A stretch of DNA of 42,819 nt from Polyangia bacterium (GCA_030430565.1 JAUIKS010000008.1:303225-346043); one strand, 5' to 3'; shown: positions 3,882 to 31,060, counted from the first letter of the stretch. Numbers and translations: made by a program. The notes: generated by a model from the letters alone, not told the origin.

Positions 3882-4802
3882 TCAGCCGAGCAGGTCACGC
3901 AGCGCCGGCTCGAGCTCCGGGTGGCGAAACTCGAAGCCGAGCCGGGTCAACGCGGCCGGGGCCATGCGCTGCCCGCCGAGGATCGCCTCGGCCATCCCGC
4001 CGACGGCCAGGCGCAGCGCGAACGCGGGGACGCGCATGATCGTCGGCCGGTGGAGGATCTTGCCGACCGCGCGCGTGACCTCGGCGTTGGTCGCTGGCGC
4101 CGGCGCTGACGCGTTGAGCGGGCCGTCGCAGCGCTCATCCGAGAGCGCCCGCTGGAAGATCCGCACGAGGTCCTCGAGGTGGATCCACGGCATGTACTGC
4201 TCGCCGGAGCCGAGCGGTCCGCCGACGCCGAGCCGGATCGGCTGCGCGAGCTTCTCGAGCGCGCCCCCGCCCCGCCCGAACACGATCCCGATCCGGACGA
4301 TCGCGACCCGCACGCCGAGCGTCCGCGCCCGCGCGGCTTCGCGCTCCCACGCGACGCAGACCTCGGCGAGGAAGTCGTCGCCCGCGGGCGCGCGCTCGTC
4401 GAGCGTGCGCTCGCCGCCGTCACCGTAGTAGCCGGAGGCTGAGGTCGACACGAGCACGGGCGGGCGTCGCTCGCCGAGCCGCCCGCAGGCCTCGACCAGC
4501 GCGCGCGTGGTCTCGACCCGGCTGTTCATGATCCGGCGCTTCCACTCCGCGCTCCAGCGCCGACCCGCGACCGACTCGCCCGCGAGGTTCACGATCCCCG
4601 CGCATCCCGCGAGCGCCTGGTCGAGCGCGTCCTGACCGGCGCCTGTTGCGACGAGCTCGACCTCGTCACCCAGCCGCGAACGCGCGCGCTCGGGGTCCCG
4701 GACCCAGGCGCGCACGCGGTGCCCAGCCGAGCGCAACGCGCTGACGAGCGGCGCACCGACGAAGCCCGTCGCGCCGGTTACGAAGATAGTTTGCTGCTCC
4801 AT
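3882..4802 (-). CDS. NAD-dependent epimerase/dehydratase family protein, TIGR01777/YfcH (SDR39U1)-like
   Basis: Most likely start is the internal ATG at 4800-4802, giving MEQQTIFVTGATGFVG, a Rossmann GxxGxxG motif at the N-terminus. About 306 aa. The ORF track extends a further 26 codons upstream. Confidence 0.75.
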   Translation of the reverse strand: MEQQTIFVTGATGFVGAPLVSALRSAGHRVRAWVRDPERARSRLGDEVELVATGAGQDALDQALAGCAGIVNLAGESVAGRRWSAEWKRRIMNSRVETTRALVEACGRLGERRPPVLVSTSASGYYGDGGERTLDERAPAGDDFLAEVCVAWEREAARARTLGVRVAIVRIGIVFGRGGGALEKLAQPIRLGVGGPLGSGEQYMPWIHLEDLVRIFQRALSDERCDGPLNASAPAPATNAEVTRAVGKILHRPTIMRVPAFALRLAVGGMAEAILGGQRMAPAALTRLGFEFRHPELEPALRDLLG

Positions 4803-5109
4803 GGTCTTTCGGCCTTGTTGGCTGGCGTCGTCCGCCTCGCTCGCGCCGACGTCGGTAGACGTAGCATGTCGCCCGCGCACGGTACACCGCCGCCACCGAC
4901 GTCTGCGGCCGACGGACCGCGCGGGCTATGTTTCGCGTAGTAGCGATGACGCGACCCGAACCTACCGCCGCCGCTCGCCGCGAGCGCGCCGCGTCGACGA
5001 ACGCGAGCGTTGATGGCGAACTACCTCGCGGGCGAGCGGGCGCGACGCGCCTGCGCTGGACCGTCGATCGCGTCGACGAGACCTACGGGCGACCTCCGCC
5101 CCCCAGCGC

Positions 5110-5982
5110 TCAGCGCGTCGCGTCGCCGGGCTCGAGCGCCGGCGCGCCGTCCCAGCCGCGCCGCTCGAAGCGGAACGGCAGCCGTCGCAGCTCGCCGCCG
5201 ATGACCGCGCGCTGGTGCTGCAGCCCGCGGCTCAGGCAGCGGTAGCGCTCGAGATCGTCGGTGAGGCCGGCGTCGCCGCGCGCGGTCACGGCCGCGCGCG
5301 CGCGCAGCAGCTCGGCGACGCGCTCGCCGATCCACGTGCCGATGCTCATCGACGCGGACATCACGAAGTAGATGATGACCACCAGCATCAGCGCGCTAAC
5401 CGTCGCCAGCGCGTCGACCATGTACTGCGGCGGGTTGCGGATCAGGAAGCTGAACAGCGCCACGAGCGCGCTGACGCCGACGCCGGCGCCGGCCCAGCGC
5501 AGCGCCTCGGCGAGCTGGCGGCCGTAGTCCGTCACCTGGTCGATGCTGCGGGAGCCGGCCCGGCCGACGAGGCGCACCGCGAGCGCCTCCGAGGTCGCCG
5601 CGCGATCATTGGACATGTTCGATCCATCAGGTGACTTAAGCGCCAGCAGCTCGCGCCGCGCCGGAGCGCGGCGGTAGCACTCGAGGCCGAACTCGGCGCG
5701 GAAGTCACCGCGCGCGATCTGGATCCGCAGGCCGTCGATCGGGCCGTCGACCGCGCGGGTCGTTACCGCGTAGCCCGCGTCCGCGGGGAAGAAGTGCGCC
5801 GCCGCCTTGCTGAGATGACGCTCGACCTCGCTGAACTCTGGCTCGAGCTGGCTCGAGCTCCGGCCCGGGCAGGTCAGCGACCAGCCGAAGCTCTCCTCGA
5901 GATCGCGTCGCACGAGACCGGATTCCACCGCGAGCCCTCCGGTTTTCAAGCTAGCCCCCGCGCGACGCGTCGTCCACTTCAT
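5110..5982 (-). CDS. Hypothetical membrane protein (two predicted TM helices)
   Basis: 290-aa ORF with an ATG at 5980-5982. Hydrophobic segments VGVSALVALFSFLI and ALATVSALMLVVIIYFVMSASM. The opposite-strand ORF has a composition typical of antisense artifact. An internal ATG (MSNDRAA) gives a shorter alternative start. Confidence 0.45.
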   Translation of the reverse strand: MKWTTRRAGASLKTGGLAVESGLVRRDLEESFGWSLTCPGRSSSQLEPEFSEVERHLSKAAAHFFPADAGYAVTTRAVDGPIDGLRIQIARGDFRAEFGLECYRRAPARRELLALKSPDGSNMSNDRAATSEALAVRLVGRAGSRSIDQVTDYGRQLAEALRWAGAGVGVSALVALFSFLIRNPPQYMVDALATVSALMLVVIIYFVMSASMSIGTWIGERVAELLRARAAVTARGDAGLTDDLERYRCLSRGLQHQRAVIGGELRRLPFRFERRGWDGAPALEPGDATR

Positions 5983-6028
5983 GGGCCGCCGCGGCCCGTC
6001 TAGACCGGTTTAAGGCCGTTGGCGGAGG

Positions 6029-7903
6029 GTGGTGTCCGTTCTGATATCGTCCCGCGGCATGTCCGGCGCCCGGCCGCAACGAAATTTCGCCTGCTTCGCG
6101 CGCTGGGTCGAACGCGCTCGGATCGCGGAGCGGCTCGCAGTCGCGGCCTGTGGCAAATCCACATCGACCGCGACGCGGGCCATCGACCGCGACGCCGTCC
6201 AGACCGCCTGGCGACGCGCGAGCCGGGCCGTGGCCGCCCGCGTGGCCATGGCCTGCGCGCGGGAGCGACTCGTGGACGGTACGTGGGCCAACGATTCGCT
6301 CGTACTCCGGCCGCTGGGCATCTCCTTGCCGCTCGCGCGGCTGTCCGCCTTTGAGCTCCACGAGCCCGAGCTGGACGCCCCGCGGGCCGCGACGCTCGAG
6401 GACCCGGTCGCGCTGCTCGACGCGCTGTGGCCGACGCTGTCGGCGGTCGTGGAGATCCCGCGTGTGGGCGAGGGACGCGTGCGCGCCGAGCTCGAGGACT
6501 GCGTCTTTAACCTCGCGCTCAACGAGTACGCCGCGGGCGCGCGTCATCGCGTCGCCGCCGAGCGCGGCGAAGTCGGGCCGAGCCCCGCGCTCATCGACTC
6601 CGAGCAGCTCCCGACGGCCGGGCACCCGTGGCACCCGCTGTGTAAGACCCGGCTCGGGCTCTCGCTGCGCGAGAACCTGCTGCACGCGCCCGAGCTCCTG
6701 GGCGACGGCTCGTTCCTCGCGGTCGACATCGACGCCGCCCACGCGGCGACCAGCGGGCGCTACCTCGAGCTCGCCGCGCGGGTGCTGCCGACCCCGCCCA
6801 AGGGACAGGTGCGTGTGCCGGTCCACCCCGCGCAGCTGCGGCGCCTGCCCGCGCTGCTCGGGCGCTCCTTCGGACAGGTCGTACGCGCGGTCGCGCTCCC
6901 ACACGGATCCGTTCGCGCGCGCGCGCTGCTCAGCACGCGCACGGTCGTCGTCGACGCCCCGCGCGTCGCGGCGCGGCTGCACGTCAAGCTCGCCGTCAAC
7001 GTGCTCACGACCAGCGCCACGCGGACCGTCTCCCCGATGAGCCAGATCAACGGTCCGCGCGTGAGCGCGCTGCTCGAGCGCATCCGAGCCCGCGACCCGG
7101 AGACGCGCGGGCGCGTGCTGATTCAGCCCGACGGCGGCGGCGCGGGCCTGCTGCAATCACGCTACGGCGACGCGGCGCGCCAGCTGGGCGTCATCCTCCG
7201 CGAGTCCCACGAGCCGCTGGCGCGCGCGCTCGTCCCCGAGCCAGCGCGCACGCCGAGAGCCTGGGTCTGCGCGGCCTTGGGAGAGCGCCCCCCCGGGGGC
7301 GCCCGCTGTCTGCTCGCCGAGCTCGCGGCGGGCTACCCCGGCGCACCGCAGGCCCGCGGCGAGGCGATGATCGCCGACTACGTGAACGCCCTCGCGCCGC
7401 CGCTGCTGCGCATGCTCACGGCCCACGGCGTCGCCCTCGAGGCGCACCTGCAAAACACCCTGGTGGTCAGCGACGGCGCGCGCGTCCGCGGCTTCCTCAT
7501 CCGCGATCTGGGCGGCATCCGCGTGCACAGGCCGCGCCTGCGCGCCGCCGGTCACTCCCTCGAGCTGGCGCCGGGCTCGTTCATCGCCACCGACTCCCTC
7601 GAGGAGGTCCAGCGCAAGCTCAGCCACGTGCTGTTTCACGCCCACCTCGCCGCCGTGTTCTCGGCGGCGGCGCGCTCGCTCGCGATCCCCGAGCGCCGGT
7701 GCTGGGCGCTGACGCGGGACGTCGTCGCGCGCGCGCTCACGACCTGGTCCCGAGATCCAGCGCTGCGCGCGGCCTGTGAACGCGACCGCGTCGCCTTGCT
7801 CGCGCCGCGCTGTCACGCCAAGGCGCTGTTTCACATGCGCCTGCTCGACCGCAGCAGCGACTACCGCTACACGGTGGTCGACAACGCGCTCGCCGGGGGC
7901 TGA
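6029..7903 (+). CDS. IucA/IucC-family ATP-dependent amide ligase (NRPS-independent siderophore synthetase-like) with FhuF-like C-terminal domain
   Basis: 624 aa. GTG start at 6029 with GGAGG immediately upstream; the start is uncertain and the next ATG is at 6059. Motif [14 protein letters not shown] resembles the conserved H-x-Q-N segment of IucA/IucC enzymes. The C-terminal [11 protein letters not shown] region resembles the FhuF-like domain. The family call is motif-level only. Confidence 0.6.
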
Positions 7904-7941
7904 GCGCGCTCCCGGATCACGGGCCTGGTATCGTGCGGCGC

Positions 7942-8859
7942 ATGACGACGCCCCGTCTCCCGCTCCTGTTCTCGCTGCCCGCGTACGAATACTTGCAGCG
8001 CGACCTGCTGGCGCTCGGGGGCCTCGAGCGCGGCGAGCTGAGCACCAAGCTGTTCCCCGACGGCGAGCGCTACATGCGGCTGCTGACCGCGGTCGAGGGG
8101 CGCGAGGTCGTGCTACTCGGCGGCACCGTCGACGACGCCGCGACGCTGATGCTCTACGACCTGGCCTGCGCGATCGTGAAGCTCGGCGCGCGCAAGCTGA
8201 CGCTCGTCGTCCCCTACTTCGCCTACTCGACCATGGAGCGCGCCGTGAAGCCCGGCGAGGTCGTCACGGCCAAGACGCGCGCGCGCCTGCTCTCGGCAAT
8301 CCCGCCGGCGAGCTACGGCAACCGCATCGTCCTGCTCGACCTGCACAGCGAGGGCATCCCGCACTACTTCGAAGGCGAGCTGACCGCGATCCACGTGTAC
8401 GGCAAGCCGCTCGTGCGCGCGGCCGCGCGCCGGCTCGGCGGCGAAGAGTTCGTGCTCGCGTGCACGGACGCCGGCCGCGCCAAGTGGGTCGAGTCGCTCG
8501 CCCACGACCTGCACGTGACGCCCGCGTTCGTGTTCAAGCGCCGGCTCTCGGGCTCCGAGACCGAGGTCGCGGCCGTGAGCGCGCAGGTCGAGGGCCGCCG
8601 CGTGATCATCTACGACGACATGATCCGCACGGGCGGCTCGCTGCTCGGCGCGGCCCGAGCCTACAAAGACGCCGGCGCGACCAGCCTCGCGTGCATCACG
8701 ACCCACGCGCTGCTGCCGGGCGACGCCTTCGGCCGGCTGCAGCGCAGCGGGGTCTTCACGGACATCGTGGCGACCGACAGCCACCCGCGCGCCCGCGAGC
8801 TCGCGGCCCAGGGCCTCGGCGTCGAGAGCTGCGCCGCGCTGCTCCACGAGCACCTCTGA
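7942..8859 (+). CDS. Ribose-phosphate pyrophosphokinase (PRPP synthetase) paralog, divergent
   Basis: 305 aa from the ATG at 7942; the ORF track starts at a GTG at 7933. Collinear with Prs throughout: N-terminal LFS...LA..L.LG......KLFPDGE (Prs FSDGE motif), [22 protein letters not shown] (Prs DLHA.QIQGFF), and a PRPP-binding loop [13 protein letters not shown]. The canonical YARQDRK stretch is replaced by YSTMERAVK. Confidence 0.7.
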
Positions 8860-8903
8860 CGCGCCGCACGGCCTGAGCGCTCCCCACCAACACGACGACG
8901 CCC

Positions 8904-10892
8904 ATGCAGCTCATCAAAGTCGCCGCCGCCGCGGTCAACCAGACCCCGCTCGCCTGGGACACCAACCAGGCCAACATCACGCGCGCGATCGCGCTGGCCC
9001 GCGCGGCCGGCGTGACGCTCTTGTGCCTGCCCGAGATGTGCACCAGCGGATATGGCTGTGAGGACAGCTTTCACAGCCGCGGCGTGATCGAGCAGGCCTG
9101 GCGCGTGCTCACCGAGATCGCGCCCGCGACCGCCGGGATGATCGTCTCGCTCGGCCTCCCGATCGTGCACCGCGCGGCCGTCTACAACGCCGCCGCGCTG
9201 CTCGTCGACGGGCGCGTCGCCGGCCTGGTCGGCAAGCGCTTCCTCGCCGGCGACGGGATTCACTACGAGCCGCGCTGGTTTCGCCCGTGGCCCGCCGGCG
9301 CCGCGGTCGACTGGTCCCACCAAGGCGAGCGCTACCGGCTCGGCGACCTGCTGTTCGAGGTCGGCGGGCTGCGGATCGGCTTCGAGATCTGCGAGGACGC
9401 GTGGGTCCCCAACAGGCCCGCGGGGCGCCTCGCCGGTCAGGGCGCCGACTTCATCCTCAACCTCAGCGCCTCGCACTTCGCCTTCGGCCGCCACGAGCAG
9501 CGCCGACGGCTCGTCGTCGAGGGCTCGCGCGCGTTCGGGACGACCTACATCTACGCGAACCTGCTGGGCAACGAGGCCGGCCGCGTCATCTACGGCGGCG
9601 ACGCGCTGATCGCCTCCTGCGGCAAGCTGCTCGCGGCGGGGCCGCGCTTCGGCTTCGAGCCCGCCTACCTGACCGCCTGCGTCGTCGACGTCGACGCGAC
9701 GCGCCTCTACCACGCGCGCACCGCCAGCTTCACGCCCTCGGTCGTCGACCCGCCGGGCAGCGTCGTCGAGGTCCCGGCCGAGTTCCTGCGCGAGCAGATC
9801 GACATCGAGACGCAGTCGGTCGTCGACCCGGCGTGGGCGCGCAGCGACGACTGGAAGTTCGAGGAGTTCACGCGCGCCGAGGCGCTCGCGCTCTACGACT
9901 ACCTGCGCAAGAGCAAGACGCGCGGCTTCGTGATCTCGCTCAGCGGCGGCGCCGACTCGGCGGCCTGCGCCTGCCTCGTCTACTACGCGATCGCGCTGGC
10001 GACCGAGGAGCGCGGCCTCGCCCGCGTCTGCGAGGCGCTGGGATATGACCCCGAGGCCATCCCGAGCTTCGCGGCGCTGATGCGTCAGCTGCTGACCTGC
10101 GTGTACCAGGCGACGCGCAACAGCTCCGAGACCACGCGCGCGGCCGCCGAGGCCGTGGCCGCGGCGGTGCACGCCGACTACCTCGAGCTCGACGTCGACG
10201 CGCTCGTCAACGGCTACACGTCGATGATCGCCGGCGCGCTCGCGCGGCCGCTGACTTGGGAGACCGACGACATCGCGCTGCAGAACATCCAGGCCCGCGC
10301 CCGCGCGCCGGGCGTGTGGATGATCGCCAACATCCGCAACGCGCTATTGCTCGCGACCAGCAACCGCTCGGAGGCCGCCGTCGGCTACGCGACCATGGAC
10401 GGCGACACCAGCGGGAGCCTGAGCCCGATCGCGGGCATCGACAAGGCGTCGCTGCGCAAGTGGCTGCGCTGGGCCGAGGTCCGCGGCCCCGAGGGCGTCG
10501 GCCCGATCCCCGCGCTGAAGGCCATCAACTCACAGCAACCAACCGCCGAGCTGCGCCCGCCCGGCGAGGGGCAGACCGACGAGGGCGACCTGATGCCCTA
10601 CCCGATCCTCGACGCGATCGAGCGCGCGGCGATCCGCGACAAGCTGCCGCCGCGCGACTGCTTTCGGCGCATGCGCACGCGCTATCCCGAGCTCGCCAAG
10701 GCCACGCTGTTCGCCTACATCGAGCGCTTCTTCAAGCTGTGGAGCCGCAACCAGTGGAAGCGCGAGCGCTACGCGCCCTCGTTCCATCTCGACGACGAGA
10801 ACCTCGACCCGAAGACCTGGTGCCGCTTCCCGATCCTCTCTGGCGGCTTTCAGCGCGAGCTGGACGAGCTGCGCCGCGAGCTCGAGCTGTAG
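8904..10892 (+). CDS. nadE: Glutamine-dependent NAD(+) synthetase (N-terminal CN-hydrolase/nitrilase domain + C-terminal NAD synthase domain)
   Basis: 662 aa with an ATG start. Nitrilase-domain start (LLCLPEMCTSGYGCED). NAD-synthase P-loop SGGADSAA (GFVISLSGGADSAACACLV). Length and architecture match long-form NadE. Confidence 0.85.
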   Translation: MQLIKVAAAAVNQTPLAWDTNQANITRAIALARAAGVTLLCLPEMCTSGYGCEDSFHSRGVIEQAWRVLTEIAPATAGMIVSLGLPIVHRAAVYNAAALLVDGRVAGLVGKRFLAGDGIHYEPRWFRPWPAGAAVDWSHQGERYRLGDLLFEVGGLRIGFEICEDAWVPNRPAGRLAGQGADFILNLSASHFAFGRHEQRRRLVVEGSRAFGTTYIYANLLGNEAGRVIYGGDALIASCGKLLAAGPRFGFEPAYLTACVVDVDATRLYHARTASFTPSVVDPPGSVVEVPAEFLREQIDIETQSVVDPAWARSDDWKFEEFTRAEALALYDYLRKSKTRGFVISLSGGADSAACACLVYYAIALATEERGLARVCEALGYDPEAIPSFAALMRQLLTCVYQATRNSSETTRAAAEAVAAAVHADYLELDVDALVNGYTSMIAGALARPLTWETDDIALQNIQARARAPGVWMIANIRNALLLATSNRSEAAVGYATMDGDTSGSLSPIAGIDKASLRKWLRWAEVRGPEGVGPIPALKAINSQQPTAELRPPGEGQTDEGDLMPYPILDAIERAAIRDKLPPRDCFRRMRTRYPELAKATLFAYIERFFKLWSRNQWKRERYAPSFHLDDENLDPKTWCRFPILSGGFQRELDELRRELEL

Positions 10893-10897
10893 CGATC

Positions 10898-11959
10898 GTG
10901 CACCCGGCGGACCGCGAGCGCGTCGACGCGATCAAGGACTGGCTCGAGGAGGAGCCGAGCCGCGGCCTGTTTCGCTCGCTGCTCCGCGCGCTGCGTGAGC
11001 TCCTCGATCCGGCGCTGCGGCGCGACCTCATCGCCTACTGCGCGCGCGCGCTGCGGCCGTGGCCGACAACGCTGCGCGAGGTCCAGGAGCCGTTCTTCCT
11101 CGACGCCTGGATGGACGCGCCGGACGAGGTCATGACCCTGATCCAGGCGATCGCGGCCCACGAGATCGGCGTCGACGACGACGCGCTCACGCGACTCGCC
11201 GCGCTGCCGGAGCTCCGCGGGCTGCGGCGGCTCGAGCTGTACTGGAACGGGGTCGGGCTCGCCGGCGTGCAGGCGCTGGTTCACTCCCCGCACCTCCACG
11301 GCCTCGAGCACCTCGGGCTGCGCTACAACCGGATCGACGCGCGCTGCGTCCGCGCGATCGCGGACGCGCCGAACCTCCGGCGCCTGCGTCACCTCGACCT
11401 CGGCGAGAACGCGCTCGGCCCCGCGTCGGTGCGGGCGCTGGGCGACTCGGGCGACCTGCCGGCGCTGCGCTCCCTGGTGATCTCGGAGGTTCGGGAGGGG
11501 CTCACGAGCGCGCGGGCGCTGTCGCGGTCGCGGCTGAGCGCGCGGCTCGAGCGACTCGAGCTCGTCAACGCGCGGCTGGGCGATCGCGGCGCCGCAGCCC
11601 TGGTCGCCTCCTCGCGCTGGCGCGCGCTCCGGCACCTCGATCTCAGCGCCAACCAGATCGGCTCGCCGGGGCTCGCAGCGCTGCTGCGCGGCGGCCTGCC
11701 CACGCTCGAGCGATTCGAACTCGGCGAGAACCAAGTCGGCCCCGAGGGCCTCCGCGCGCTCGCCCGCCCTGGCGCGCTCCCGCGGCTCCGCGTGCTCAAC
11801 CTCGCGCAGAGCCCCATCACCGAGATCGGCGCCCGGCTCCTCTCGGAGCCGGCTACGCTGCCCGCCCTGCGGCACCTCGACGTCTCGAGCTGCGGGCTCG
11901 AAGAGCCCGCGCTCGCGCGTCTTCGACGCGCGCGCCCTGAGTGCGCCGTCGAAGGGTAA
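10898..11959 (+). CDS. Cytoplasmic leucine-rich-repeat protein (ribonuclease-inhibitor-like LRRs)
   Basis: Frame is open from within nadE. Proposed GTG start at 10898, 5 nt after the nadE stop; about 353 aa. About 9 tandem 28-29-residue repeats with LxxLxLxxNxIGxxGxxAL spacing (LRHLDLSANQIGSPGLAAL, LERFELGENQVGPEGLRAL). No signal peptide. Confidence 0.7.
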   Translation: MHPADRERVDAIKDWLEEEPSRGLFRSLLRALRELLDPALRRDLIAYCARALRPWPTTLREVQEPFFLDAWMDAPDEVMTLIQAIAAHEIGVDDDALTRLAALPELRGLRRLELYWNGVGLAGVQALVHSPHLHGLEHLGLRYNRIDARCVRAIADAPNLRRLRHLDLGENALGPASVRALGDSGDLPALRSLVISEVREGLTSARALSRSRLSARLERLELVNARLGDRGAAALVASSRWRALRHLDLSANQIGSPGLAALLRGGLPTLERFELGENQVGPEGLRALARPGALPRLRVLNLAQSPITEIGARLLSEPATLPALRHLDVSSCGLEEPALARLRRARPECAVEG

Positions 11960-11963
11960 GCGC

Positions 11964-12833
11964 CTACATCTCGGGGTCGATCAGGACCGTGAGCGAGGTC
12001 CCCGGCAGCGCGCCGAGGGTGTATGTCATGAAGTTCAGATCGGGGTGGGTCACCGTGTACTCCGAGGCGGCCGGCGCGCCCGGGACGATGAACAGGCCCG
12101 TCGACGAGGTCTCGGTGTTGACGGCCCCCATCGTCTGGAAGATCCCGTCCTCGTGGAAATCATCGCCGTAGTACACGGTCGGGCAGCCGCCGCAGCTGAT
12201 GCTCGCGCCGGGCACACCGCCCTTGTTCATGTCGCGGATGTAGCCGATCACGGCGCCGTCGGTCGCGATCGTCGCGGTCGAGCCGGCCATCATGAGCCCC
12301 ATGTCGGTGCCGGCCACCGTGTCGACGTCGAGCACCCACGCCTTGTGCTCGGGGAGCTCGTCCCCGTCCGCCAGGTCCATGTAGCGGATCGGGCGCATGC
12401 CCGAGGCCGAGGGTGAAACGATCGTCCCGGAGTTGTCGCAGTCGTGGACCAGGATCACGAGCCCGAACTCCGGCTTGCTCATGATCCCGGTGACCATGAA
12501 CTTCCCGTCAGGCATGAGCTCGGTGCTCGCGAGCGCCACCGCCTCGCCCTGCTCCATCGTCGGCACTGGATCGACGATGCTGACGCACACGCTGCCCGCG
12601 GCCGACATGTACGGCTCGCCGGTGAACAGGTCGACCGCGGTGCCGGAGATCGCGAAGCCTGGGCCCATCATCCCGGTCTCGCCCATGGTCATGGGGCCTG
12701 CGCTGGGGTCGGTCTCGGCCGTGGTCTCGCCGGTCGCGTCGGTGTCCTCGCCGCTGTCGCCGCACGCGCCCGCGCTCGCCAAGAGCAAGAACGCCGCGGC
12801 GCTGGTGATCGCTACTAGTCTGCTGCGTTTCAT
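11964..12833 (-). CDS. Hypothetical secreted lipoprotein
   Basis: 289 aa with an ATG start. N-terminus MKRSRLVAITSAAAFLLLASAGACGDSGED is a signal peptide plus lipobox Cys followed by an acidic low-complexity tether. Convergent with the LRR gene, 4 nt gap. Confidence 0.6.
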   Translation of the reverse strand: MKRSRLVAITSAAAFLLLASAGACGDSGEDTDATGETTAETDPSAGPMTMGETGMMGPGFAISGTAVDLFTGEPYMSAAGSVCVSIVDPVPTMEQGEAVALASTELMPDGKFMVTGIMSKPEFGLVILVHDCDNSGTIVSPSASGMRPIRYMDLADGDELPEHKAWVLDVDTVAGTDMGLMMAGSTATIATDGAVIGYIRDMNKGGVPGASISCGGCPTVYYGDDFHEDGIFQTMGAVNTETSSTGLFIVPGAPAASEYTVTHPDLNFMTYTLGALPGTSLTVLIDPEM

Positions 12834-13093
12834 GGTGTCGTCGCCTTCCGCCTGAGCACGTCGCTGGTGCAGCGACCGCGCGCGGATCTACGCGGCCCCC
12901 AATGGCCGCGGCTGAAGCACGTTGGACAGCGCGCGCGTCTCAAGAGTGTCATCACGAAGGACCGCGGATCCATTCAGCCTGCCCCATAAGACCTGTGGTT
13001 TTTTTTCCCCCCGCGCGCGTCCGCGCCGGCGAGAGGAAATATCCCCGCGACGACGCCCCGCGCGTCACGGCCGCGCGCGTGACCGCGCCCGAC

Positions 13094-13888
13094 TCAGGAG
13101 GCCGGCGCCGGATCGTCGAGCTCGGGATAGCGGCGAAAGATCCCGTCCTCGTTGAACGGGATCCGGCGCGGAGACGCGAGGTACGCGGCGATACGCGGCA
13201 GCGCGGCGACCCTCGCCCGCAGCGCCGTGAGCCGCGGGATCGTCGGCTCGACGCGCGCGTAGGCCCGCGGGAACGCGTAGGCCAGGCCCTCGAGGGTCTG
13301 GAACATCGAGAGGTCGACGTAGCTGAGGCGCGCGCCCACGAGGTGTCGCCCGCCGCTGGCCGTGTTGGCCGTGAGGACATGTTCAAAATAACCCAGGAAC
13401 TTGGGCAGGCGCGCGCCGCGAAAGCCCTCGGCGCACCGCCTCGCCGCCTCGACCTGGTCCTCGAAGTACTTCGACTTGGCGATCGGGTGGTGCGTGTCGT
13501 GGGCCTCCGCGACCAGGTCGGCGATCGTCAGCTGCAGCTGGTTGGCCTCGAGCTGGCGCCCCTCGTCCGCCGGCGCGAGGCCGTGACGGCGCGCGAGGTA
13601 CAGGCAGACGTTCGCGACCTGCGCGAGCACGAGCTCGCCATGACGCAAGATCGGCGGCGCGAGCGGCAGCACGCCGACGCCGAGGCCGCCGCCCCGAAAC
13701 GCGCCGACCACCGCCTTGAGCCCGCCGCCCTCCGACTCGGGCAGGCGCGCGACGCCGCGGTAGCGCGCGCCGGCCTGCTCCAGCACGAGGCGGACGTACT
13801 CGCCGCGCCCTTGCAGCGTCGGCCAGTAGTACAGCTCGTAGGTCGGATCCTCGTGGTTCGCGCCCGCGTCGATTGTCGCTTCTTGCAT
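13094..13888 (-). CDS. Glutathione S-transferase family protein
   Basis: Start taken at the internal ATG at 13886-13888, preceded by AGGAG; the ORF track extends 11 codons further. YELYYWPTLQGRGEYVRLVLEQ thioredoxin-like N-domain plus a helical C-domain, as in GSTs. Confidence 0.75.
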   Translation of the reverse strand: MQEATIDAGANHEDPTYELYYWPTLQGRGEYVRLVLEQAGARYRGVARLPESEGGGLKAVVGAFRGGGLGVGVLPLAPPILRHGELVLAQVANVCLYLARRHGLAPADEGRQLEANQLQLTIADLVAEAHDTHHPIAKSKYFEDQVEAARRCAEGFRGARLPKFLGYFEHVLTANTASGGRHLVGARLSYVDLSMFQTLEGLAYAFPRAYARVEPTIPRLTALRARVAALPRIAAYLASPRRIPFNEDGIFRRYPELDDPAPAS

Positions 13889-27670: not shown

Positions 27671-27676
27671 TATAAT
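27671..27676 (+). promoter_or_regulatory. Perfect TATAAT hexamer (candidate -10 element) about 140 nt upstream of the GD-repeat lipoprotein gene
   Basis: cttacggtcaTATAATacgcc. There is no good -35 match (TAGCAC at 17-nt spacing). Weak on its own in a high-GC genome. Confidence 0.2.
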
Positions 27677-27816
27677 ACGCCGGAGGGACGGGCCGCGCGC
27701 GGTCCGTCCTGCTTACACGGCCCCGCGCTGACGCGAGACCGCGAGCTGCTCGGCAGACGAGCGCGGCGCCCAGCGCTATGCCCGCGAGATACAAGACGAT
27801 GATCACGATTAGCCGA

Positions 27817-29058
<1,242 letters not shown>

Positions 29059-29085
29059 CGCGCCGCCGCGGGCGGCTGACCAAAG

Positions 29086-29115
29086 ATGACCCCGAGGACC
29101 TTTCCTCGGGGTCAT
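29086..29115 (+). terminator. Strong stem-loop (13-bp perfect stem, 4-nt loop) downstream of the GD-repeat lipoprotein gene
   Basis: ATGACCCCGAGGA-CCTT-TCCTCGGGGTCAT, 28 nt after the stop at 29058. No downstream T tract, which is common in high-GC bacteria. Confidence 0.55.
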
Positions 29116-29167
29116 GTCGTTCGCGCCGCGCGTGAGGTGGTACTCTCGGGGCGCTCAGAGGTTGACC

Positions 29168-29689
29168 ATGTACGTCTGCGATCACTGTCAGCGCCACTAC
29201 CGGGCGCGCGAGCCCCACTGCCCGTTCTGCGGCCCGACGCCGCGCAGCGTCGCGGCGTCGACGCTGCTGACGCTCGGCCTCGGCCTCGCGCTCGGCGTAG
29301 CGACGACGAGCTGCGGGGACGACAAGACGAACGAGAGCGGGAACGAGAGCTCGCAGACCTCGACCGACGCGGACGACTCCACCACGACCTTCTACGCGGG
29401 CCCGGGCCCCAGCACGGAGCTCTCGAGCTTCGGGACCACCGCGGCCGAGACCACCGACGCGACCGCGGGCACGACCGGCACCGACCCGGGCACGGAGACC
29501 GATACAACCACCGGCGACAGCACGGGCCAGAGCACGACCGACGCGACCGAGGGCGACAGCAGCTCGAGCGCGTCGGACTCCGACGCGACGACAGAGGCGA
29601 CGACCGAGGCGACGACAGGCGCGACGACGGGCGACAGCTCGGGCTCCGGCGGGGACCTCGACGTCGACCCGCCGCGCGCAGACAAGTAG
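29168..29689 (+). CDS. Zinc-ribbon / single-pass membrane (or lipo-)protein with long Thr/Ser/Asp/Gly-rich extracytoplasmic tail
   Basis: Internal ATG at 29168 gives MYVCDHCQRHYRAREPHCPFCGP (CxxC-x10-CxxC zinc ribbon), then the hydrophobic AASTLLTLGLGLALGVATTSCGDD, then about 110 residues of low-complexity T/S/D/G. The ORF track starts 18 codons earlier, inside the terminator hairpin. Confidence 0.55.
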   Translation: MYVCDHCQRHYRAREPHCPFCGPTPRSVAASTLLTLGLGLALGVATTSCGDDKTNESGNESSQTSTDADDSTTTFYAGPGPSTELSSFGTTAAETTDATAGTTGTDPGTETDTTTGDSTGQSTTDATEGDSSSSASDSDATTEATTEATTGATTGDSSGSGGDLDVDPPRADK

Positions 29690-29725
29690 CGAAGTTTAGG
29701 CGCGCAGAGAGCTTCAGGTGACGCC

Positions 29726-31060
29726 GTGAGCCTTGAGGACACCCGCCGGCGCCTGCCGATCGTCGACTCGCTGCCGCGACCGAAGACGCGCTCGCTCCTG
29801 CCGGTCGCGCCGGGACAAGGTCCGCGCCCGCGGCTCGCGGTGTGGGAGTTCACGCTCGCCTGCGACCAGCGCTGCCTCCACTGCGGACCCCGTGCCGGGC
29901 GGGCGCGACGGGACGAGCTGAGCACCGAGGAGGCGCTCGCGCTCGTCCGCGAGCTCGCCGCCGCGGGCGTGGGCGAGGTCGCGCTGATCGGCGGCGAGGC
30001 GTACCTGCGAAACGACTTCATCCTGGTCATCCGCGCGATCCGTGAGACTGGGATGACGGCGACCATGGTCACCGGCGGCTACAACCTGACGCGCGCGCGC
30101 GCGGAGGCGGCGGTCGAGGCCGGGATCAGCAGCGTCAGCCTCTCGATTGATGGCCTCGAGGACAGCCACAACCGAGTCCGCGACACGCCCGACAGCTGGC
30201 GCCGCGCGTTCCGGGCGCTCCGCCTGCTGCGCGAGGCCGGCTCGCGGATCTCGGTCAACACGCAGCTCAACGTGTGGACGCGCCACGAGCTCCCCGCGCT
30301 GCTCGAGCTGATCGCCGCCGAGGGCGCGTGGGCGTGGCAGCTGCAGCCCACGGTCGCCCACGGCAACGCGGCCGATCACCCCGAGCTGCTGCTGCAGCCG
30401 TACATGTACCTGGAGCTCTTCGACGCCGTGGAGCGCGTGCTCACCCGCGCCGAGTCGCTCGGCGTGCGGGTCTCGCCCGGCAACAGCCTCGGGTACTTCG
30501 GTCCGCTCGAGCACCGCCTGCGGAGCAGACAGATGCGCCGCACGGGGCACTTCCGGGGCTGCGAGGCCGGGCGCTCGACGATCGGCATCGAGAGCAACGG
30601 GATGATCAAGAACTGCCCGAGCAACGGCGGCCCGACGAATATCGGCGGGAGCTGGCGCGAGCGCAGCCTCGAGGAGCTGTGGACAGAGACCCCGCAGCTC
30701 AGCTCGCTGCGGGCGCGGACGGTCGAGGACCTCTGGGGCTACTGCCGCGAGTGCTACTACGCCGACCTCTGCCTCGCCGGCTGCACCGCCGTCTCGGAGC
30801 CGCTGCTCGGTCGACCGGGCAACAACCCGTACTGCCACCATCGCGCGCTCGAGCTCGACAAGCTCGGTCTGCGGGAGCGCGTCGAGCTCGTGCGGCCGGC
30901 GACCGCGGAGGCCTTCGCTAGCGCGCTGTTCCGCGTGGTCCGTGAGCACAAAGACGCGGCGGCGCGCGAGCGCCACGGCGGCCCCGTCGCGATCGAGGAG
31001 CCCCGGACGTCGCGGCTCGGAGATTGGCGGGGGCCCGGCGCGCCCGTTCCGCAGAGGTGA
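29726..31060 (+). CDS. Radical SAM enzyme with C-terminal SPASM domain (peptide/protein-modifying maturase family)
   Basis: 444 aa with a GTG start at 29726 and GGTGA 5 nt upstream. CxxxCxxC radical-SAM cluster motif FTLACDQRCLHCG. GGEAYLRNDF (GGEP-like). SPASM Cys motifs CEAGRSTIGIESNGMIKNCP and WGYCRECYYADLCLAGCTA. Confidence 0.8.
   Translation: MSLEDTRRRLPIVDSLPRPKTRSLLPVAPGQGPRPRLAVWEFTLACDQRCLHCGPRAGRARRDELSTEEALALVRELAAAGVGEVALIGGEAYLRNDFILVIRAIRETGMTATMVTGGYNLTRARAEAAVEAGISSVSLSIDGLEDSHNRVRDTPDSWRRAFRALRLLREAGSRISVNTQLNVWTRHELPALLELIAAEGAWAWQLQPTVAHGNAADHPELLLQPYMYLELFDAVERVLTRAESLGVRVSPGNSLGYFGPLEHRLRSRQMRRTGHFRGCEAGRSTIGIESNGMIKNCPSNGGPTNIGGSWRERSLEELWTETPQLSSLRARTVEDLWGYCRECYYADLCLAGCTAVSEPLLGRPGNNPYCHHRALELDKLGLRERVELVRPATAEAFASALFRVVREHKDAAARERHGGPVAIEEPRTSRLGDWRGPGAPVPQR

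Follow-up and report, generated by a model that had tools for sequence, protein, structure and literature searches.

Known relatives and composition of the locus

Paralogues of prs dedicated to nicotinamide adenine dinucleotide (NAD) salvage operons under the control of NrtR were described in 2008, and the genomes with such operons carry two prs genes (Rodionov et al., PMC2330246). Here we compare these NrtR-linked operons and the related prs-nadV and pncA-pncB-nadE clusters with a locus in a 42,819-nt stretch of DNA from a Polyangia bacterium (GCA_030430565.1 JAUIKS010000008.1:303225-346043; the whole stretch is hereafter called the window). Four genes follow one another there on the + strand, encoding an IucA/IucC-family synthetase of the siderophore type that is independent of nonribosomal peptide synthetases (NIS), with an FhuF-like C-terminal domain (6029-7903, below referred to as IucA), a Prs-like ribose-phosphate diphosphokinase (7942-8859), a glutamine-dependent NAD(+) synthetase NadE (8904-10892) and an RNI-type leucine-rich repeat (LRR) protein (10898-11959). 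The window shares with the salvage operons the Prs subfamily (~65% identity), the NadE type (~60%) and the prs-nadE gene order, the genes being separated by between a few and a few tens of nucleotides (by 44 nt in the window), but it lacks pncB, nrtR and pncA and has an IucA/IucC gene upstream of prs instead.

A sequence-only reading of this stretch had proposed that the four genes form an uncharacterised pathway for a nucleotide-, ribose- or NAD-linked metabolite, or else a specialised NAD-metabolism module. Our comparison suggests that the cluster is likely a mosaic of three unrelated pieces, namely a NAD pair, an orphan NIS ligase and an LRR insertion, which are probably co-transcribed in the window. 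What looked exotic as a gene combination thus comes down to a routine NAD pair beside an orphan ligase, with an inserted gene, and a false lead is avoided.

In such a mosaic, the Prs-like enzyme would supply phosphoribosyl pyrophosphate (PRPP) to pyridine phosphoribosyltransferases, as suggested by its family membership and by the operons found elsewhere, and NadE would adenylate nicotinate adenine dinucleotide (NaAD) and then amidate it with glutamine-derived ammonia, as expected from its homology and from its P-loop and triad motifs. The orphan ligase would adenylate a carboxylate, for which citrate is the default guess, and join it to an amine or alcohol, drawing on primary metabolites or on partners encoded elsewhere. 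A single ancestral rearrangement would have put IucA ahead of prs-nadE in one subclade of the Nannocystaceae, and a recent 2.2-kb insertion would have brought the LRR gene together with the adjoining lipoprotein gene.

The Prs-like/NadE pair in other lineages

Prs-like/NadE pairs without an IucA neighbor are found in several lineages. In a 3.1-Mb metagenomic contig and a Sericytochromatia metagenome-assembled genome (MAG) (L086 6532-12220 and L088 5696-10914; L numbers denote the loci compared with the window), overlapping genes encode a nicotinate phosphoribosyltransferase (NAPRTase, PncB; 490 aa), the Prs-like protein, NadE and NrtR in this order, with PncA as an optional fifth member. Both the NAPRTase and the nicotinamidase (PncA) of the salvage operons exceed the NCBIfam equivalog cut-offs. 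A scan of metagenome contigs with the alignment of the Prs-like subfamily returned 80 loci, where NadE lies directly downstream of the Prs-like gene in 29 of the 69 assessable loci (35 with any match) and the upstream position is taken by PncB in 21 of 60 (31 with any match). NrtR was found in 14 of these 80 loci, PncA in 11 and IucA in only seven, all seven having a Prs at least 68% identical to that of the window, hence Nannocystaceae-like. The nadE gene of Lignipirellula cremea (complete genome) is of the same type and directly overlaps pncB, and two Myxococcota loci (L089 and L091) have prs-nadE without IucA.

Since the pair recurs with pncB, nrtR and pncA elsewhere, and since prs paralogues in salvage operons were documented in 2008, the Prs-like/NadE pair of the window is, as judged from these sequence comparisons, a known kind of NAD module. 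The earlier suggestion of a NAD-metabolism module therefore holds for prs-nadE, but the module is of an already described kind (PMC2330246) and not a new pathway. Searches by tblastn with the PncB, NrtR and PncA proteins of L086 gave no match in the window, nor in any of the Nannocystaceae loci. A displacement of pncB by IucA was considered and rejected, as other Myxococcota prs-nadE loci are also devoid of pncB.

In the PDB, the NadE protein has its best match, spanning the whole length, in the Cytophaga hutchinsonii NAD synthetase (3ILV; E 6e-174; identity ~55% as read off the alignment), followed by human NADSYN1 (6OFB; E 1e-66). It has the same two-domain glutaminase/ATP-pyrophosphatase architecture and the same SGGADS P-loop as these two enzymes. 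The motifs CLPEMC, GKRFLA, FEICEDAW and SLSGGADS are seen in the translation and align with 3ILV; the first three are those which we take to hold the Glu/Lys/Cys triad of the glutaminase. Among the family models, NadE exceeds the TIGR00552 cut-off (88.1 vs 63.65), but it falls under the cut-offs of both full-length equivalogs, PRK13981 (240 vs 479) and PRK02628 (217 vs 473), which represent other NadE clades. These low scores would reflect clade structure and not loss of function, given the large set of homologues: there are at least 8,000 of them, and the best 120 are 60-86% identical, with all source names given reading NAD(+) synthase. Proteins from Pirellulaceae, Thermoanaerobaculia, Polyangia and Nannocystis are included among these 120, and annotated NAD synthases of Planctomycetota and Acidobacteriota are 60-63% identical to the window protein. 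The view of this NadE as an odd paralogue thus gives way to its membership of a very large and highly conserved NadE clade, and its close homology to solved enzymes points to NAD(+) synthetase function.

The Prs-like protein scores 170 bits against TIGR01251 (cut-off 113) and remains below the cut-offs of all class-specific NCBIfam equivalogs. It is ~27% identical to the Prs proteins of Escherichia coli and Bacillus subtilis, its best PDB match being the Prs of S. solfataricus (4TWB; E 3e-32), and it belongs to a subfamily of more than 5,700 homologues that are ~65% identical across several phyla. Residues F41/D43/G44/E45, H138, K202/R203/R204, D228/D229 and T233 are invariant with the E. coli and B. 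subtilis enzymes. The subfamily retains the flag motif FxDGE, the catalytic His of DLH, the KRR loop, the DD pair and the T-G-G-S phosphate loop. In our motif survey of the subfamily (the window, loci L086, L088 and L094-L173, and alignments A2 and A3), the class-I ATP-loop YARQDR is invariably replaced by Y[SA]TMER, DDMIRTGGS stands for the class-I DDMIDTGGT, and the C-terminal class-I allosteric segment (the last ~15 residues) is missing. No biochemical characterization of a subfamily with TMER/DDMIRTGGS was found in the literature searched. The conserved catalytic residues and the operon context suggest PRPP synthesis as its activity.

All 107 columns that are invariant among 10 aligned subfamily members from several lineages are conserved in the window Prs, and NadE likewise shows ordinary identity (60-63%) to its annotated homologues; as both look like ordinary family members, there is no sign of neofunctionalization beside IucA. 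Within the local stretches represented by the related loci examined, tblastn with E. coli Prs revealed no canonical class-I prs gene. According to a 2026 survey, many sporadic non-class-I PRPS classes of bacteria keep the catalytic residues and often occur alongside class I (PMC13252144); the Nannocystaceae are not among the taxa in the supplements of that survey. The subfamily with the altered ATP loop accompanies pncB, nadE and nrtR in many phyla, and its substrate is of interest given the repurposing of the same fold in the phage enzyme Adps, discussed below.

History of the IucA-prs junction and of the LRR gene

A scan of a genome collection identified 38 Nannocystaceae loci with IucA, 37 of which have enough downstream sequence for comparison. 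Among these 37, the IucA-Prs-NadE arrangement is present in 12 and IucA-Prs only in six more, so that prs accompanies IucA in 18 loci in total, one of them with a 1.5-kb insertion between both genes; in the other 19, neither prs nor nadE is found near IucA. Neighbor-joining trees of IucA and of Prs both place all IucA-linked prs loci in a single clade, indicating that the junction arose once and was then inherited. Within this clade, L014 and L089 are collinear at ~80% DNA identity, except that 1.9 kb containing IucA in the former (9856-11776) correspond to 0.53 kb in the latter (7424-7951), a gap located between a conserved upstream gene of the 290-aa type (see below) and prs. By this alignment, L089 has cleanly lost IucA while keeping prs-nadE. 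When the same loci are compared, divergence is most rapid in IucA (41-60% identity), against 65-90% for Prs and 62-86% for NadE.

The LRR protein matches LRR_6 with 80 bits and has no N-terminal hydrophobic segment. No homologue of it was detected by tblastn in ~90 related loci, including all other IucA loci. The closest relative of the window, L031 (NadE 86% identical), is collinear with it at 5130-10884 and again from 13101, and the intervening 2.2 kb of the window (10885-13100) are represented by only 0.53 kb in L031. This segment holds the LRR gene and a - strand gene for a predicted lipoprotein of 289 aa (11964-12833; N-terminus MKRSRLVAITSAAAFLLLASAGAC; no Pfam match), the latter being absent from L031. 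By this comparison of loci, the LRR gene is a lineage-specific indel with no standing as a conserved partner of the cluster, and the place given to it in the cluster by the sequence-only reading was not borne out.

The same comparison disposes of co-conservation of all four genes, as no other IucA locus has the LRR gene and IucA, Prs and NadE occur together in 12 of 37, within one clade. With an LRR indel, 19 of 37 IucA loci devoid of prs and nadE, a pair that occurs elsewhere without IucA and a clean loss of IucA, the four-gene pathway for a new nucleotide-, ribose- or NAD-linked metabolite finds no footing. Nothing demands that the ligase act on a PRPP- or NAD-derived substrate, and a joint function of the neighbors, though conceivable, is without support.

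Several observations weigh against a purely mosaic origin. The spacing between IucA and prs is about -13 to +31 nt in most junction loci, with a stop/start overlap within Nannocystis, and the gene order persists in a clade whose IucA proteins are only ~45-50% identical, a persistence compatible with selection for co-expression. One subclade keeps IucA and prs together though nadE has left the locus. The tight spacing speaks for some residual functional coupling of the two genes. In addition, no partner gene, transporter or regulator was found that would account for a product of the IucA ligase, and the replacement of Arg-Gln by Thr-Met in the ATP loop of the Prs-like protein means that ATP and ribose 5-phosphate are not proven as its substrates.

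The IucA reading frame of L031 shifts once (11083-11116), and its database entry is an N-terminal fragment of 363 aa. The shift may mark a pseudogene or an error of long-read assembly; the former interpretation was not adopted, since prs and nadE of L034 are frameshifted in a like manner, probably through faulty assembly.

The orphan NIS ligase and a possible siderophore product

The translation of the first gene matches IucA_IucC with 112 bits (4e-32) and FhuF with 94 bits (1e-26), against Pfam cut-offs of 25, so that its assignment in the sequence-only reading stands. Translation probably starts at ATG 6059 and not at GTG 6029, a 16-residue N-terminal stretch fitting the family consensus. 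An AlphaFold model of the protein (pLDDT 88.8, pTM 0.90) superposes over its full length on eight solved NIS enzymes, AsbB, DesD, DfoC, IucC, AlcC, IucA, AcsD and SbnC, with TM-scores of 0.66-0.79 at 16-20% identity, and favors no one NIS type among them; in sequence searches with phmmer, the E-values against the solved enzymes are no better than 7.5e-9. Residues S302/R304/T305, K320, T328/S329/R332, E471/H473/Q475/N476 and R492/D493 are invariant in 16 homologues of the clade. The corresponding SxRT, K, TSxxRT, HxQN and RD motifs are presumably the ATP- and carboxylate-binding residues of NIS enzymes, by a correspondence with AcsD that we assume. From its modelled fold and these motifs, the protein is very probably an active adenylating ligase.

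Nearly all of the 79 IucA homologues detected at E-values up to 1e-10 belong to Nannocystaceae or to MAGs assigned to Myxococcales, and by these sequence relatives the clade is confined to the Nannocystaceae. Haloarchaeal and Bacillus enzymes are its farther relatives (26-36% identity); the Bacillus relative examined belongs to a cluster of the canonical type, which also encodes another IucA/IucC protein, transporters of the major facilitator superfamily (MFS) and a pyridoxal phosphate (PLP)-dependent decarboxylase. The window protein thus resembles the NIS siderophore synthetases (AsbB, DesD/DfoC, IucA, IucC, AlcC, AcsD, SbnC and FslA/LbtA) in its fold, in both Pfam domains and in its motifs, but it differs from them in that its gene stands alone and in that its clade is restricted to one family and remains at 16-20% identity to the solved enzymes. 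The Nannocystaceae therefore carry a well-conserved clade of NIS synthetases, predicted to be catalytically intact, for which no partner genes were found nearby.

It is possible, though rather doubtful, that this ligase is a siderophore synthetase next to which prs-nadE lies only incidentally, either making a rhizoferrin-like product or taking part in nannochelin-type citrate-hydroxamate assembly with genes for a hydroxylase, an acyltransferase and transport located elsewhere. A single NIS enzyme is enough to join citrate and a diamine into a polycarboxylate of the rhizoferrin type, and the full NIS fold with its intact invariant motifs would suit this role; the best NCBIfam match is indeed the rhizoferrin synthetase FslA, but its score of 108 bits is far under the cut-off of 1000. 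The production of citrate-hydroxamate nannochelins by Nannocystis exedens and N. pusilla (PMC4902002, PMC10127202) and the canonical clusters of the distant Bacillus homologues, with their second IucA/IucC gene, MFS exporters and PLP decarboxylase, point in the same direction. No description of a nannochelin gene cluster was found in the literature searched.

Against such a role, no transporter, decarboxylase, monooxygenase or acyltransferase was found in the window open reading frames (ORFs) scanned or in the annotated relatives examined, and siderophore partner genes for precursor supply, export and uptake are absent from the annotated IucA loci of Nannocystis and Plesiocystis. Aerobactin-type siderophores normally need two NIS enzymes, and the 80 loci kept include only one from each Nannocystis genome; moreover, one lineage has cleanly lost IucA. 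A siderophore role with partners encoded elsewhere is compatible with a mosaic origin of the cluster.

Nucleotide-directed alternatives

An integrated pathway, in which the NIS ligase, the Prs-like protein and NadE together make a nucleotide-, ribose- or NAD-linked amide such as an N-substituted nicotinamide nucleotide, appears improbable, as does the example of a nicotinate carboxylate that is adenylated and receives an amine other than ammonia. Its chemical basis is that NIS synthetases and NadE share adenylate-then-amidate chemistry. A substrate of this kind is also conceivable, the IucA clade being about equally far (16-20% identity) from all characterized NIS types. Further in its favor are the gaps of about -13 to +31 nt between IucA and prs in most of the species-level genomes with the junction and the maintenance of this gene order where nadE has moved away. 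However, the junction arose once, half of the IucA clade has no prs and nadE nearby, the prs-nadE pair survives a clean loss of IucA, and both Prs and NadE are undiverged in comparison with their homologues in pncB operons. No system combining an IucC-type synthetase with NadE and a PRPP synthetase was found in the literature searched, in line with the sequence-only reading, which named none.

A different proposal concerns the Prs-like protein itself, which might pyrophosphorylate another ribose acceptor, for example ADP-ribose (ADPR). The pncA/pncB/prs-like/nadE/nrtR set would then constitute a deamidated variant of NARP1 without NadD, making NAD from ADPR and nicotinate, and the window would hold its last two steps only; we consider both the proposal and this consequence for the window quite unlikely. 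There is a precedent in the phage enzyme Adps, the ADP-ribose pyrophosphokinase of NARP1, which shows that the PRPS fold can take ADPR (PMC13586617), and the two proteins are alike in their fold and in their ties to NAD metabolism. The replacement of Arg-Gln by an invariant Thr-Met and the change of DDMIDTGGT to DDMIRTGGS in the Prs-like subfamily could be read in the same way. The pncB-prs-like-nadE-nrtR-pncA operons (L086, L088 and ~25 metagenome loci among L107-L171), which are tied to the ADPR-sensing regulator NrtR (PMC2330246), include all steps of NAD recycling except NadD, and no NadD was detected near them by tblastn with the E. coli and B. subtilis proteins, a search of low sensitivity.

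On the other side, PncB in these operons passes the canonical equivalog cut-offs, and the Prs-like subfamily keeps the catalytic KRR loop, the His and the T-G-G-S phosphate loop of true PRPP synthases, as many sporadic bacterial PRPS classes keep their catalytic residues (PMC13252144). In contrast to phage NARP1, the window has no Namat or Nampt neighbor, and the PP loop of the Prs-like protein differs from the CDxAAS loop of Adps. A kinship with Adps was rejected, as the phage-encoded homologues are at most 30% identical to the Prs-like protein. No literature description of a combination of ADPR pyrophosphorylation with NaAD was found. If correct, the use of ADP-ribose by the Prs-like protein would give bacteria a NARP1-like NAD recycling loop in deamidated form.

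Very improbable are two further readings, each independent of the other. In one, the orphan ligase of the Nannocystaceae subclade with a tight IucA-prs(-nadE) operon acts on a pyridine- or ribose-nucleotide carboxylate, such as nicotinate mononucleotide (NaMN) or NaAD, or on a PRPP-derived acid, to yield an amide-modified nucleotide; with such a ligase, the IucA/IucC family would gain its first role that is directed at nucleotides and lies outside siderophore synthesis. In the other, the Prs-like protein with TMER/DDMIRTGGS pyrophosphorylates ADP-ribose in place of ribose 5-phosphate.

Gene calls and regulatory elements

The stretch has ~72% G+C, and genes were assigned by combining gene calling based on G+C content at third codon positions (GC3) with the list of ORFs, their translations and a Pfam scan, in which only matches above the gathering cut-offs were counted. 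GC3 gene calling backs the + strand ORFs at 6014-7903, 7780-8859 and 8877-10892 (GC3 0.91-0.97). The LRR ORF at 10898-11959 was not returned by the filter on GC3 and GC2 (second codon positions), a miss probably due to a longer stop-to-stop ORF (10256-11959) that contains its frame and overlaps nadE; its call is based on its translation, its strong LRR_6 matches and its entry in the ORF list. The start of the Prs-like gene at ATG 7942 was taken from a 305-aa database protein, the ORF itself opening at GTG 7933. With this start, the operon-like spacing on the + strand noted before was reproduced, the gaps between IucA, prs, nadE and the LRR gene being 38, 44 and 5 nt. All four family assignments made earlier from the sequence are correct, every Pfam family named for them lying above its gathering threshold: in addition to the domains of the ligase, these are Pribosyltran_N (54 bits), Pribosyltran (36 bits) and Pribosyl_synth (36 bits) for the Prs-like protein, and CN_hydrolase (64 bits) and NAD_synthase (102 bits) for NadE.

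Twenty further ORFs were scanned across the window, shorter ORFs at ~16.9-18.4 kb and 38.4-39.5 kb being left out, and none of them encodes a PLP decarboxylase, N-monooxygenase, acyltransferase, TonB receptor or exporter, in agreement with the earlier remark that siderophore partners are missing. They include genes for an RlmL-type methyltransferase, a thiamine pyrophosphate (TPP) enzyme, a thioesterase, an epimerase, a glutathione S-transferase (GST), kinases, a sigma-54 activator and a radical SAM protein. In an Rfam scan of positions 4800-13200 (E up to 1), the sole match was a chance one to a snoRNA, and no NAD riboswitch was detected. A scan of positions 5000-13000 for promoters and terminators identified no promoter-like sites and no + strand terminators, a result that is uninformative at 72% GC. 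A role of the four proteins in anti-phage defense was rejected, as PADLOC gave only sub-threshold noise for them and for their neighbors in related loci.

Other neighbors of IucA

The most widely conserved neighbor of IucA is the divergently transcribed gene of a 290-aa protein with hydrophobic stretches, which is possibly membrane-bound (5110-5982, - strand). It has no Pfam match, and tblastn revealed its homologues directly upstream of IucA in 11 loci (L008, L012, L014, L017, L024, L027, L028, L031, L032, L039 and L041); the gene is also kept in L089, where IucA is absent. The genes downstream of IucA vary by clade, and this upstream neighbor is common across clades. Among the Enhygromyxa loci (L024, L027, L028 and L032) and in Plesiocystis pacifica SIR-1 (L002 10001-20579), IucA is followed by genes for a ~870-aa protein (weak VWA match), a ~1085-aa Tubulin_2 protein and a ~900-aa protein. 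Nannocystis punicea CP114040 (L001 7680-14779) possesses six genes that overlap or nearly abut, encoding an AAA_16 STAND-like NTPase (394 aa), proteins of 180 and 202 aa, IucA, Prs and NadE; no confident family or PADLOC match was obtained for the three encoded before IucA. Elsewhere in the window, at 27676-31060, a gene for a 460-aa protein without a known family is followed by one for a radical SAM/SPASM enzyme, and the two may be a peptide-modification pair.

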